From assembly GCA_965248235.1 (NCBI GenBank), contig CBDFIU010000004.1:1275330-1339329 (forward strand): 64,000 nucleotides of DNA, read 5' to 3'. Positions 4,400 through 64,000 of this stretch are shown here, one piece after another. How positions within the stretch are numbered: the first letter of the stretch is position 1; the number at the start of each line of letters is the position of its first letter. The position numbers were made by a program, and so were the translations under genes. The DNA comes from Bryobacterales bacterium. GTDB taxonomy: Bacteria; Acidobacteriota; Terriglobia; Bryobacterales; UBA6623. The notes beneath the pieces were generated by a model. The model ran no database searches, had not been told where the DNA came from, and was given only the letters and a program-made list of their open reading frames with translations.

Positions 4400-5545
4400 T
4401 TAAGCGTCGTTTTTGGGCGTTGGCGGCAGCGGGGCCAGGCCCACACGCTTTCCCACGCGATAGGCGATTGAGCCGTAGATCTTCGCTAACTGCTCGCGGG
4501 CCTCAGCCAGCTCACGGTCGAGGCGCTGGGCCCATTCGGTTCTCTCAGCAGCCCGCGCTTCGGCCCCCTCCAAGTTGTCTCGCGCCTCCTCTACGTCGGC
4601 CTCGAGCGACTCAGCCCATTTCGTTCGTTGGAGCAGTTCCTTGTCGAAACGCGCTTTGATCTGCTTGGCCCAACGGACCTTCTCTTCGTTTTCTTTTTCG
4701 AGAGCGGTGACGGCTTCTTGCGCTTCGCGCTGTTCAGCGCGGTGAATCTCGTCAAGCTGCTTCAACTCTTTCGTCGTCTCGGCCAGCCACTGCTCCTTTT
4801 GCATCACCTCTTGTTTGAGTAGGTGAATATGTTTCTCGCGGTCTCGCAACACATTACCCGACCGCGGCAGATAGACAAAAGCCGGAGAACCATAGAGCGG
4901 CTGCCTCGAACAGACGGCGACAAAAAAATGGGCTTGCGCGGGCTCGGGGACAGCGGTCTCGAGTGTCGTCCGCACACCCTTGACCTCGAGCGGGGTGAAG
5001 GTGATGGCGTTGTTGTGGTTTTCCAGAAACAGGGTCACATGGGGAAAACGCTGTTCGAGCTCTTCGCGAAACTCGACGTAATTGAATTCCCGAACATGAA
5101 AAGGATTTGCTTCAGCCCGCGATTCGGCGTAGTAGTCGCGATTAGGCGTCGAGACGATCAATTGGCCCGACGGAACCAGGACCCGAGCCGTCTCATCGAG
5201 AAAGGCTCCGGGATCCTCGAGATGTTCGATGGCCTCGAAAGCAACGACTACGTCGAAGGATTCCGAGGCGAACGGCAATCGGGCGCAGTCGCCTTGGCAT
5301 TGGCTCAGATTGGCGGCCGCGTACTCGGAGCGACACAGGCGCAACGGCTCCAAGGCGACGTCGACGGCCGCGACCGACGTCGCGCGGCGAGCCAAACGCT
5401 TGGCGCCGTAACCGACGCCGCACCCGGCGTCGAGAACCCTTCGTTCGCTGACAAGTGATTCCGCGAAGCCGTAGCGGGCGATATGTTCATTCAAAAGGTC
5501 GGGGTCGGTTTGCCCCGGGATGACCCGCTCCCCGGTGAATTCCAT
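4400..5545 (-). CDS. Class I SAM-dependent methyltransferase with C-terminal coiled coil
   Basis: FTGER, EHIARY, VLDAGCGVGYG, FEAIEHL, STPN, NPFHVREF; E/K/Q-rich helical C-terminus. Confidence 0.85.
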   Translation of the reverse strand: MEFTGERVIPGQTDPDLLNEHIARYGFAESLVSERRVLDAGCGVGYGAKRLARRATSVAAVDVALEPLRLCRSEYAAANLSQCQGDCARLPFASESFDVVVAFEAIEHLEDPGAFLDETARVLVPSGQLIVSTPNRDYYAESRAEANPFHVREFNYVEFREELEQRFPHVTLFLENHNNAITFTPLEVKGVRTTLETAVPEPAQAHFFVAVCSRQPLYGSPAFVYLPRSGNVLRDREKHIHLLKQEVMQKEQWLAETTKELKQLDEIHRAEQREAQEAVTALEKENEEKVRWAKQIKARFDKELLQRTKWAESLEADVEEARDNLEGAEARAAERTEWAQRLDRELAEAREQLAKIYGSIAYRVGKRVGLAPLPPTPKNDA

Positions 5546-58694: not shown

Positions 58695-58799
58695 CGAAAC
58701 GACCGGGCCAAGCATCCCGATTCACTCACCGAAAAGATCATCGCCATTCGCATGATCGCTGGGATAGCCCGCAATCTCCTCAATGCCGAATCCCCCGAC

Positions 58800-58845
58800 G
58801 TGGCGCACGCTTTAGCCTGCCGTGTCGCCACTCCCGGCGACGTCT
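58800..58845. repeat. REP-like intergenic element
   Basis: GTGGCGCACGCTTTAGCCTGCCG followed by GTCGCC-actccc-GGCGAC hairpin; resemblance to acidobacterial REPs is from memory only. Confidence 0.4.
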
Positions 58846-59062
58846 CTTCTGAAGCAATCGGCCGGCCGAAACGAATTTCATACGTTCCCACACAAGGAAG
58901 TCAGCGCTCCGGCCACAATACGCCACTCAGCCCCGACCCCCAAACAGCCGCCCCTTGAACATCTCCTCCCCGCCGGTTACCCTTTCTCAAGAGCGCCCCG
59001 ACCCCAATTCGCCGGTTGCCCGCTGCCGAATCCTCGCTAACGACGACTCGAAGGAACAAACC

Positions 59063-60220: not shown

Positions 60221-61530
60221 ATCGCCGACAGTTTTTCGGAGGCGCCCTGCTCGCCGCCGCCGCCCGTCAGAAAGCCCAAGCCGCCGACCGCGGCTGTTCG
60301 CCGGCTCTTGCCTCCACTCTCTCCCCGGCCCTCGCCGCTGCCCTCCCACCATCCCCGGGAAAAATCAAAATCACCGGCATGAAGACCTTCGGTGTCACTT
60401 GGGAAGAGGATTCCGACCGGCCCTACGTCTTCATCAAGCTCGAAACCGACGCCGGCGTGGTGGGCTGGGGCGAGGCGACGCTTGAGGGCAAAGCGGGCGC
60501 TACGCTCGCCACGCTCGACGACTTGAAACCCTTCTACATCGGCCAAGACCCCATGCGCGTCGAGCACATCTGGCAGGACATGTATATCCACGCCTTTTAC
60601 CGCGCCGGCCCCATCCTCGGCTCCGCCATCGCCGGCATCGACCAGGCGCTGTGGGATATCCGCGGCAAAGTGCTCGGCCAACCCGTCTACCGTCTGCTCG
60701 GCGGCCCCGTCGATCCCCGAGGCGTGCGCGGCTACTATCACGCCCGCGCCGGGACCAAGGAAGAACTCGCCGCGCTGCGCGAGTCGGCCGAGCGGCTCGG
60801 CGTCACCGCTTTCAAGAGCGGCATCCCCGGCTATTACGAATGGATCGAAACCAACGAAACCATCGACGCCGCCGTCAAGCACATGGCCGGCCTGCGCGAA
60901 GGACTCGGCGACAAGATCGACATCGGCATCGACTTCCACGCCAAAACCAGCCCGACCGTGGCGACCATCCTTTGCCGGGAAGCCGAGCCGCTGAATCTAA
61001 TGTTCATCGAAGAGCCCTGTCCGCCGGAGAACTACAAGGCCATGCGCCGCATCGCGCGCCGCACCACCACCCCCATCGCCACTGGCGAACGCCTCGTCGC
61101 CCACTACTCGACTCAACAACTATTAGAAGACGGCACGGTCGACATTCTGCAATGCGACCTCGCGCACGTCGGCGGCCTCACCGCGCTGTGGAAAGTCGGA
61201 GCCATGGCCGAGGCCTCGGGCTGCCTGATGGCCCCCCACGCCTGCGAAGGCCCCATCGCCGGCATGGCCACATTACACGTCGACGCCGCCATGCCCAATT
61301 TCCTGGTGCAGGAAATCTGCTCCGGAATCGAGCCGACATTCAAGGAAAAACTCTGGGAAGACTGGCTCGGCTTCCCAACCATGCGAATGGTCGACGGATA
61401 TTTTCCATTACCCGAAAAACCCGGCCTAGGATTCGAGATAAATGAAACCGCCCTAGCCAAAAACCCCTTCAAAGGGACGCGGCCGATGGCCCGGGTTTTT
61501 CACGAGGACGGCTCTGTGGCGGCTTGGTGA
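60217..61530 (+). CDS. Tat-exported galactonate dehydratase-like enolase-superfamily enzyme
   Basis: NRRQFF Tat motif; GEATLEG, DQALWDIRGK, FK, DFH, EEP, TGER, PH, QE; ATGA overlap with the previous gene. Confidence 0.9.
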   Translation: MNRRQFFGGALLAAAARQKAQAADRGCSPALASTLSPALAAALPPSPGKIKITGMKTFGVTWEEDSDRPYVFIKLETDAGVVGWGEATLEGKAGATLATLDDLKPFYIGQDPMRVEHIWQDMYIHAFYRAGPILGSAIAGIDQALWDIRGKVLGQPVYRLLGGPVDPRGVRGYYHARAGTKEELAALRESAERLGVTAFKSGIPGYYEWIETNETIDAAVKHMAGLREGLGDKIDIGIDFHAKTSPTVATILCREAEPLNLMFIEEPCPPENYKAMRRIARRTTTPIATGERLVAHYSTQQLLEDGTVDILQCDLAHVGGLTALWKVGAMAEASGCLMAPHACEGPIAGMATLHVDAAMPNFLVQEICSGIEPTFKEKLWEDWLGFPTMRMVDGYFPLPEKPGLGFEINETALAKNPFKGTRPMARVFHEDGSVAAW

Positions 61531-61594
61531 ATTCCGCCCCCGACAGCTGAGGAACCATTCTTTCCAAAGGTCTTGGTTGGGACGCACTCAAAAC

Positions 61595-62053
61595 CTAGAG
61601 CAATCCCCTCTTCGCCAACTTCCAATAGAATTGCCCCAGTGACGTTAGGCGCACGGAATTTGAATTCAATGCGGCATAGTACAAATCCTGTTCTGAGTCA
61701 ACAGACAACAGCCGAGCATCTCTCAGCTTTTTGAACTTCTCGAACAACGCTACCTTCTCAACATCCGCCTCAACGTGAGTTTGCTCGCACGACGGATCCA
61801 GTTCGATTGCGCCATTGCACATTCCGAAAAACTTGGGGAGTTCGCGGAGCAGATCATCAGAAACGCTCGGTTGACAGTTGCGCACCGGGGGCAGCGTGCT
61901 GGCGTGAGTCTTATAAATCGGGCGCTGATCCCAGGATCCGAGAGCCGCCTCGACGTAAGCATAGATGGACGCAGCAGACACGTTCCCGCGCACGTCTGCG
62001 GCACCGCCTTTTAGCGCCCCGACGATCAGATCGGTAAACAACCCCCGCCCTCC
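61595..62053 (-). pseudogene. C-terminal half of a caspase-family (peptidase C14) protein
   Basis: GGRGLFTDLIVGALKGGAADVRGNVSAASIYAYV...WDQRPIYK...YYAALNS...LT.LG..YW.L; His/Cys catalytic half absent; more AT-rich than the flanks. Confidence 0.75.
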
Positions 62054-62057
62054 GGGG

Positions 62058-62166
62058 GGGATCGGTGACGGGGGATTGGTCGGGATCGGTGACCGGGATC
62101 GGGACCGGGATCGGTGACAGGCAGCTGGTCGGGATCGGTGACGGTCGGGATCGGTGACAGGCAGCT
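62058..62166 (+). repeat. Stuttered GGGATCGGTGAC array
   Basis: Perfect copies start at 62058, 62082, 62107, 62131 and 62147; degenerate copies at 62072 and 62095; the 62107 and 62147 copies extend with AGGCAGCT. Confidence 0.95.
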
Positions 62167-62194
62167 AACTGTGGTAATCTGACCTCACCACCAA

Positions 62195-62887
62195 ATGTCA
62201 CGCCAAGCCCGGGTGGTGGCGGAGGGCGTTCCGCACCACATCACCCAGAGGGGCAACAACCGTCAGGACGTCTTCCTGCTCGACGAAGACCGGCGGTTCT
62301 ACGTCGAAGCTCTACGCGCACAATCCGAGCAGCACGGCCTGACTGTTCTGGGCTACTGCTTGATGACCAACCACGTCCATTTGGTCGCCATACCGAAGCA
62401 CGCGACGTCGCTCGCGCGGACGATCGGTCGAGCCCATTGGCGCTACTCGGTTCGCTTCAACAAACAATACGGACGAATCGGTCATTTGTGGCAGAACCGC
62501 TTTTATTCCTGTCCCTTAGGCCCCACACACCTGGTCATGGCGTTGGCCTATGTCGACCTGAATCCGGTCCGCGCGGGCATCGTAGGCGAAGGGCCCGAGT
62601 ACCCTTGGTCGAGCGCCTCGGCGCACTGCGGAGACGCCATGAGCGACCGCCTAATCGACCCCGGGGAATGGCACCGGACAGGCTTGGCGAGCGATTGGGA
62701 ACAACGTTTGCGAGCCGAGTCGAAGGACGAGCGGGCCGACGAAGTACGTGAAGCGACCTATTCCGGGCTGCCGTTGGGGGACGAACAATTCATCGAACAG
62801 ATGGAAGCGCAACAGGGCAGGCGCTTGCGGTCACTCCCTCCAGGCCCCGCGCCGAAGGCACTGAAATCCGCCGCCGGAGGCATGTGA
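62195..62887 (+). CDS. REP-associated tyrosine transposase (RAYT; Y1 HUH, IS200/IS605 superfamily)
   Basis: HHITQRGNNRQ.VF, YCLMTNHVHL (HUH), GHLWQ.RF, YVDLNPVRAG, YPWSS. Confidence 0.92.
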   Translation: MSRQARVVAEGVPHHITQRGNNRQDVFLLDEDRRFYVEALRAQSEQHGLTVLGYCLMTNHVHLVAIPKHATSLARTIGRAHWRYSVRFNKQYGRIGHLWQNRFYSCPLGPTHLVMALAYVDLNPVRAGIVGEGPEYPWSSASAHCGDAMSDRLIDPGEWHRTGLASDWEQRLRAESKDERADEVREATYSGLPLGDEQFIEQMEAQQGRRLRSLPPGPAPKALKSAAGGM

Positions 62888-62899
62888 CCCGGGTTACGT

Positions 62900-64000
62900 G
62901 GCTGTTTTAATGCATAGGTGAGCCGGCGAAGAGGTCCTCCTGAGAGGGATAAAAAGCTAAGCGCAGCCGCCCAAGGCGGCGCCTTAGAACCCGAACTCAG
63001 GAGGACTGAAATGCACTATATCGGACTCGACGTCCACAAGCAAAGCGTCAGCTACTGCACCAAGACCGCCGCCGGGGAGTTGGTCGAGGAAGGTCGCATC
63101 GACGCCACCCGCGAAGCGCTCGCAAGTTGGGCCCAAACGCAACCGCCCTGGCGCGGGGCGATGGAAGCCACCTTGTTCAGCGGCTGGATCCACGACACGC
63201 TCGCGCCCTACGCCGACGACCTCGCCGTCGGACACCCCGCCGCCATGGAAGCCATCACGCGGGCCAAAAAGAAAAGCGATCGCCTCGATTCCGACAAGCT
63301 CGCCGACCTATGCCGCGTCAACCTGCTGCCGCGCGTGTGGATGCCGCCGCGCGAGCTGCGCGAATTGCGCCGCCTGCTGCGCTTTCGCCGACGCCTGGTC
63401 GAACAAGCGACCTGGTCGAAGAACCGCATCGCGACCTTGATGATGGAAATCGGCGAGCCCTACGCCAAGTCCAAACTGCACGGCAAACGCTACTTCTACC
63501 GCTTTCTCGATGATCTGAAGGCAAGCGAAACCGACCTTCTCCTGTTGGCCGCGAGCCGCGACCGTCTGGAGGATTCCGCCGAGCTCGCCCGGCTTGTCGA
63601 GAAACGCCTGCTCGAGCATCCGCTGTTGTGCGAGCGTGTGGCGAGGTTGCAAACGATCCCGGGCGTCGGGGCGATCACGGCGCTCACGTGGGCGGTCGAG
63701 ATCGGCGACCCGCGGCGCTTTCGCTCGCTCGATCGCGCGGTGAGCTACTGCGGGCTCTGCGCGCGGCTCAACGAATCGGCGGGCAAGAGCAAACGCGGCC
63801 CGCTGTCGAAGCAACGCAACCCGCATCTGCAACACGTGCTGATCGAAGCCGCCAAGCTTGCGCCGCGCTGGAACGAGCCGTTGGCCGGGTTGTATCAAAG
63901 CGAACTCGAGCGCGGACATCGCAATCGCGCGACGATTCGCGTGGCCCGCAAGCTGGTGGCGATGCTGCTCGCCATCGACCGCCGCCAAAGCGGCTACGAA
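62900..64000 (+). mobile_element. Second IS110-family element (probably IS1111 type), right end outside the window
   Basis: About 110-nt left end beginning near GCTGTTTTAATGCATAG, then an IS110 ORF; left boundary approximate. Confidence 0.7.
63011..64000 (+). CDS. IS110 family transposase, 3'-partial
   Basis: AGGAGG RBS; MHYIGLDVHK, AMEA, KSDRLD, IPGVG, YCGL...ESAGK, VARKL; open to the window end, so absent from the ORF track. Confidence 0.93.
   Translation, partial: MHYIGLDVHKQSVSYCTKTAAGELVEEGRIDATREALASWAQTQPPWRGAMEATLFSGWIHDTLAPYADDLAVGHPAAMEAITRAKKKSDRLDSDKLADLCRVNLLPRVWMPPRELRELRRLLRFRRRLVEQATWSKNRIATLMMEIGEPYAKSKLHGKRYFYRFLDDLKASETDLLLLAASRDRLEDSAELARLVEKRLLEHPLLCERVARLQTIPGVGAITALTWAVEIGDPRRFRSLDRAVSYCGLCARLNESAGKSKRGPLSKQRNPHLQHVLIEAAKLAPRWNEPLAGLYQSELERGHRNRATIRVARKLVAMLLAIDRRQSGYE

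Follow-up and report, generated by a model that had tools for sequence, protein, structure and literature searches.

The window, the whole stretch of 64,000 nucleotides analysed here (positions G000:C4:1275330-1339329 of the source genome, G000), contains a run of short repeats that begins exactly where a caspase-like gene is cut and stops just before an intact transposase gene. This locus raises the question of what the repeats are and how they came to be written there. By its sequence, the array repeats parts of the left tip of a TIRtron, a small bacterial transposon with a RAYT-like Y1 transposase. The family is already described and little studied; the stutter arrays at its ends appear to be the new part.

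The array and the element beside it

A motif search of the window recovered GGGATCGGTGAC at 62054..62166 as five exact copies, starting at 62058, 62082, 62107, 62131, and 62147; two further cores, at 62072 and 62095, are degenerate. An earlier note on this DNA had likewise counted seven copies, five of them perfect, and had placed them 28 nt upstream of the HUH/RAYT gene; the final AGGCAGCT does end at 62166, 28 nt before the transposase ATG at 62195. The seventh "unit" is the left TIR itself. Since this last copy, with AGGCAGCT, is the true left TIR of the element, the array proper is 62054..62142 (+), where six partial tip copies lie head to tail. These are unit 1 (62054-69), the degenerate unit 2 (62070-81), unit 3 (62082-93), unit 4 with a 1-nt deletion (62094-105), unit 5, the longest, which extends 11 nt beyond the motif start (62106-126), and unit 6 (62127-142). 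Relative to GAC, unit starts lie at about -9 to -13, and the ends are mostly at +3, with one at +11. Their GGTC prefix is specific to this locus.

The left-end array is real. In 4/4 sequencing runs, contigs cover 61400-62178 or more with no other letters, no gaps, and a depth equal to that of the flank, which speaks strongly against a single copy multiplied during assembly. All four runs come from a single sample in a single study, which may be the source itself, and their contigs, which bear on the left array, would conceal any rare length variants. No other place in the window has at least four exact 12-mers per 120 nt, and no such cluster was found in 20 shuffles. A CRISPR-like or RNA array was rejected, as spacers are absent and no Rfam match was found at E ≤ 0.5. 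No sigma-70 promoter-like site was found in 61900-63050. The units were originally described as non-palindromic and spacerless, and the units and TIR of the window do fold poorly; the description fails for many relatives, which have a hairpin tip motif. A small terminal hairpin with a stem of at least 6 pairs (G-T allowed) is present at 52/158 family ends, a count without a shuffle control.

The current left end of the element is the left TIR at 62143..62172 (+). It contains GGTGACAG, a variant of the GGGGWSAS motif, the G of its GAC anchor is at 62156, and its inner sequence is common to other copies. The transposase gene at 62195..62887 (+) is intact and encodes a Y1 HUH protein of 230 aa with the motifs H60-V-H62 and Y119-x3-NP. 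The protein matches PF01797 (E 6e-13) and scores 68.7 bits against NF047646, under the cutoff of 80. Among 75 aligned proteins, H62, Y119, N123, and P124 are invariant and H60 is nearly so. Of the solved structures, TnpA-REP 4ER8 comes closest in both sequence and fold. The C-terminal extension is predicted to be helical, with helices at residues 156-207. The closest RAYT relatives are found in Bryobacterales MAGs, and the source genome has a second intact copy of the element (93% nt identity) and three fragments.

The right TIR starts directly after the transposase stop codon. Its inner half is located at 62889..62905 (-) and is split by an IS110-family element at the CTGT core, 62902-62905. 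The outer half, together with a second, mirror-image stutter array, is found at G000:C4:1339924-1339973, 600 bp beyond the window end. The earlier note had the array lying at the element end; this holds for the left end, and the right TIR with its own array had been overlooked. Beyond the right-end array follows a frame, presumably kinase-like by its motifs, that runs into it. In G003 and G004, whose proteins are 89-92% identical to the window transposase, the right TIR is intact and uninterrupted.

The IS110-family element is 1.7 kb in length (62902..64000, on to C4:1339931, +). About 20 near-identical copies are present in the source genome, mostly within the same motif. All 22 of 22 left ends begin with CTGT and 17/19 right ends go on with CACC, a pattern indicating that the TIR motif is the target of this IS110. 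Downstream, in a long non-coding region of the element, target-matching stretches occur at C4:1339386 and 1339433 within what is predicted to be a stem-loop, and a stretch at 1339521 matches the right end of the element itself. The arrangement appears to resemble a guide RNA.

In the available text of Di Nocera et al. 2013 (PMC3733652), TIRtrons (TIRYTs) have a RAYT-like Y1 gene between TIRs, a GGGGWSAS-like motif in most members, and dispersed related repeats, and include an Acidobacteria group. The window element fits this family: it agrees in the Y1 gene, the flanking TIRs, and the motif, with one mismatch in GGTGACAG. The text of that paper has dimers and clusters, but no polar arrays, element boundary, cut site, or mobility test. 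The contrast first drawn with domesticated, REP-flanked RAYTs was overstated, as TIR-flanked RAYT-like elements were already known as TIRtrons. No papers on stutter arrays were found in the open-access literature; the figures and supplements S4/S5 of PMC3733652 may show such repeats.

The element probably belongs to TnpA-Y1 subclass 2.1. Members are described in the accessible parts of Quentin et al. 2018 (PMC6006769, bioRxiv 279083) as having Y-x3-NP, a long C-terminal extension, and TIRs that are not classic REPs; the window element agrees in Y119..N123P124 and the helical extension. The TIRYT examples in those parts all have an HTH, and copy number and intra-genome identity are given as low for class 2. 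Here, in contrast, 0/75 proteins match a C-terminal HTH Pfam (Bac_DnaA_C, HTH_23, HTH_28) at E ≤ 0.01 in a whole-protein search, and same-genome copies are up to 99.4% identical. Subgroup 2.1.1 is said there to have its own conserved extension.

E. coli TnpA-REP has the same fold and catalytic motifs. The REPtron, in the text of Ton-Hoang et al. 2012 (PMC3333891) that was available, is not mobile as a unit, has GTAG-tagged hairpins cut at C|T, and involves whole BIME units, whereas each unit here copies only part of the tip, from a fixed start and with a first nucleotide that is mostly G. The element falls outside the classic REPtrons: no GTAG-tagged REP hairpins or BIMEs were seen at its flanks, the NF047646 score is under the cutoff, and in place of a single-copy gene there are two intact copies plus three fragments. 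The IS200/IS605 elements (IS608, ISDra2) share the Y1 HUH fold. They differ in their asymmetric ends and conserved flanking target tetranucleotide; the window element has symmetric TIRs and an unconserved flank beyond -12, and is not a member. Bertels et al., in the text available, consider Group 1 RAYTs the most IS-like of the true RAYT groups.

Stutter arrays across the family

The family set was made up of 80 loci and 30 more, giving 195 candidate ends. Twenty-four ends were left out by eye (mis-anchored, contig-end, or the window's own) and 13 as duplicate or too short, and 158 ends were analysed. A duplication was defined as an exact tandem of at least 7 nt starting at -22 to +3 relative to the GAC anchor. 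Duplications were observed at 55/158 family ends, 50/3200 random positions, and 0/158 inner windows; the G-richness of TIR ends is unmatched in both controls, and the inner window is shorter. The remaining 103/158 ends have no exact duplication. Kin among the family ends are non-independent, and the loci cover several phyla. Whether arrays are any commoner beside this RAYT clade than elsewhere was a doubt raised with the first description, and the excess over random sites speaks in favor of the clade.

The same trait is seen closer to the window. In three same-genus genomes, duplications occur at 46/87 ends, and relatives carry stutter arrays at both element ends. The source genome has 28 stuttered ends, chosen by eye from 67 candidates. 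Among its 1678 distinct GG(G/T)GAC(A/G)G contexts, 34 are duplicated, and these are mostly TIR ends by eye. The family consensus over the 158 ends is GGGACAG. The counts support stutter arrays as a feature specific to element ends in this RAYT clade.

Undoing the duplications recovered 107 events. The arrays have a polarity: their starts are narrowly placed, and their ends vary. Among the 49 events with at most 1 nt of ambiguity, 36 have their start at -13 to -10, and in another 10 it lies further outward, at -15 to -23. Unit ends fall between -3 and +6 in 69/76 cases and at +12 to +24 in the other 7, and units are mostly 7-17 nt long. The unit start shows no C|T preference. Beyond -12 of GAC, the flank has no conserved bases. 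In same-family copies, 9-10 nt outside GAC are common to 9/11 pairs, which indicates that the unit start is the boundary, or physical tip, of the element.

The way arrays may be written

On balance, we favor a reading in which the array was written by a Y1 nick outside GAC, a short polymerase extension, and rejoining. The transposase would cut a single strand some 10-11 nt beyond GAC, on the outer side, and, as in Y1/TnpA-REP chemistry, leave the 5' end attached as a 5'-phosphotyrosine. Host polymerase would carry the 3'-OH a few bases into the element; this 3'-OH could come from extension at the nick or from a nascent strand at a fork. Rejoining of the tyrosine-held end to the extended 3'-OH would add one unit next to the element per cycle. 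Nicks drifting by a few bases would yield locus-specific prefixes such as GGTC in the window, and joining of the same end to a farther 3'-OH would give one-sided junctions such as the cut caspase. We infer this cycle from the fixed outer start at the element boundary, the variable inner ends, and the frequent lack of microhomology. A nick, 3'-OH extension, and attack on Tyr-5'P were proposed for BIME amplification in the available text of PMC3333891, a likeness in unit addition, with the difference that a second cleavage is involved there.

Microhomology bears on the strongest rival. In a set of 78 events preselected for starts overlapping -14 to -7, 24 have zero microhomology, and 17 of these 24 start at -11/-10; slippage is thus not required. 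Zero-microhomology starts are broader in three relatives, at -16 to -10 (14/44 events). At the same time, mean microhomology is 1.47 nt against 1.17 nt for the null, and the 2-nt class makes up 31% against 15%, which is compatible with primer realignment as well. It is conceivable, though rather unlikely, that after the same fixed nick the units arise on the other strand, where the polymerase runs off the nicked or protein-blocked template, jumps back through 1-3 nt of G/C microhomology, and copies the tip again. Jumping back would give the same polarity and would account for the 2-nt excess and the G-rich starts; the events without microhomology, in the main set and in the relatives, speak against it.

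Replication slippage at G-rich, hairpin-forming TIRs, independent of any enzyme, is improbable. G-runs are present at the tips, many relatives have hairpins, and some loci have long perfect repeats (L125), which point to secondary expansion. However, arrays are one-sided, with none in the 158 inner windows, and they start at the element boundary. Few of the motif contexts in the source genome are duplicated (34/1678), most of them TIR ends by eye, and the window TIR folds poorly yet has six units. Under the nick-and-rejoin reading, seeded arrays would probably also grow by slippage or unequal exchange.

Repeated self-targeted transposition, in which whole elements or excised tips insert at a tip already in place and nested stubs remain after later deletions, is comparably doubtful. 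The elements are mobile and clustered, and TIR ends occur inside RAYT and IS110 copies, as this explanation would have it. Against it, most units are only 7-17 nt, and the prefix, common to the units of one array, varies from locus to locus and from one end of an element to the other, which argues for local copying. That the array is an artefact of assembly, or was made by the IS110 recombinase, is highly improbable: the read support is from one sample and many arrays in the source genome lie at IS110 ends, but the contigs from four runs cross the array without a difference, no IS110 is present at the left end, and arrays recur in many unrelated assemblies with uninterrupted TIRs.

If units arise by nicking and rejoining, the arrays would predict the cut site within about 2 nt and provide ready substrates, and whether and how TIRtrons move would become directly testable. 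Arrays that count reaction cycles would be a readable record of HUH activity in genomes.

Cut genes, mobility, and shared genomic spots

The gene cut at the array is a caspase-family (PF00656) gene, of which the C-terminal half is present at 61595..62053 (-), approximately residues 171-324. The earlier note had found this frame coherent up to 62053 and stopping at the G-run leading into the array, and its match to PF00656 proteins of ~324 aa, with 709 relatives, confirms it. Five full-length relatives align to the source genome only from residue 171-174 on, one weak 28% paralog apart, and the frame halts at the G-run, so the gene is cut at the array. The N-terminal half, which was thought to be worth locating, was not found in the 92%-complete assembly. 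The fragment is present in 1/61 genomes, the source genome itself, and no empty allele was seen at the locus. A kinase-caspase fusion split by a clean insertion was rejected, as ~170 residues of the caspase are absent and the full-length relatives with the highest scores are caspases of ~324 aa. The joining reaction of this element may have deleted the N-terminal half.

Same-genome copies of the element are 96.0-99.4% identical and have unrelated flanks. Of 61 related genomes, 45 give matches, at most 39 per genome, counting fragments and distant relatives. Among 36 ends of the source genome, four have multicopy outer flanks that stop at the array. These cut flanks are the middle of an IS110, another IS that we take to be IS1380-like by its motif, the RAYT gene itself, and one duplicated gene. 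In the three cases that could be judged, the cut flank was not seen to resume within the regions examined. Neither clean insertions nor split genes with halves on both element sides were found, a weak test in which 18/100 flank frames match Pfam. TSDs show no excess over mismatched-pair controls at 65 loci, and a 6-bp candidate at L035 falls within chance. IS200/605 transposition is likewise not known to leave a target duplication. Near-identical copies in unrelated flanks, and an element that abuts cut genes, suggest that the element behaves as mobile, as had been supposed.

The gene pair to the left of the caspase, an enolase-superfamily pair, is conserved in G001, G003, and G004. Behind the same pair, in 4/4 same-genus species examined, the accessory DNA differs from species to species and runs up to a stuttered TIR (L137, L138, and L139 in G001, G003, and G004, and 61530-62053 in the window). 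The accessory DNA is 54-59% GC and the TIR types differ per species. More broadly, 20/83 orthologous anchors beside TIRs of relatives lie within 5 kb of a TIR in the source genome, compared with 4.4% for random positions. Some of the anchors consist of TIR-linked DNA, and two come from hand-chosen loci. For a ~1-kb IS with 280 near-identical copies in the source genome, 6.1% of sites lie this close. TIR positions are persistent sites. Synteny is broken in 31/36 gaps containing a TIR and 27/56 others, a comparison confounded by gap size (medians 3.5 and 0.3 kb), which hints that TIR gaps break synteny more often. A second shared spot was observed after G000:C5:1345292.

Capture of accessory genes is unsupported by the GC and stop-codon tests. 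Low-GC outer flanks were rejected as a sign of capture, as 10/28 stuttered ends of the source genome are under 58% GC, equal to the 36% of 560 IS flanks. Junctions just after stop codons were rejected as well (28/142, against 123/533 for the 280-copy IS). It is a speculative idea, and not a likely one, that TIRYTs are sequence-tolerant end-joining transposases whose tyrosine-held tip is ligated to any 3'-OH at hand. If so, joining to their own extended nick would give a telomere-like, cycle-counting array, and joining to distant or foreign 3' ends would give deletions, rearrangements, and accessory gene capture. TIR ends would then be persistent spots of gene turnover, and an enzyme joining arbitrary 3'-OH ends would drive rearrangement and, as a ligase-like tool, would be unusual.

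Several further features of the source genome were observed. The 280-copy IS, which is presumably IS1595-like by its motif, has one copy in the window near 4944. The window also includes, at 58764-58881, an intergenic repeat of ~115 nt that is matched many times in genomes of the same genus and family. Near contig ends, two pairs of IS110 loci are identical together with their flanks (C2:1043868 and C3:11989; C4:1777291 and C5:3238), which suggests overlapping contigs or segmental duplicates in the assembly.

At C5:1402340-1402440 (L083), an array is located at an IS110-split TIR, and one unit keeps the pre-IS110 inner sequence, so this array is older than the IS110 insertion. The same end is joined into a RAYT copy at codon ~45. 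Two TIR ends often face each other outward with 0.8-4 kb of cargo between them; of the pairs within 12 kb that 54 ends form, 6 are of this kind and 3 face inward. Many ends are unpaired. Outward-facing pairs are found at C3:73872-77973, C3:549122-550679, C5:737169-738755, C5:1346197-1347353, and C5:1415478-1416239. A second kind of duplication, 13-15 nt long, begins right after GACA inside the motif, which is the IS110 insertion point (C5:741755, C5:155720, C5:1415478, and C2:963752). Dispersed hairpin repeats with the same GGGGACAG motif (for example at C5:176806, C4:1621097, and C5:755801) are almost never stuttered, and this repeat family is also a target of IS110.
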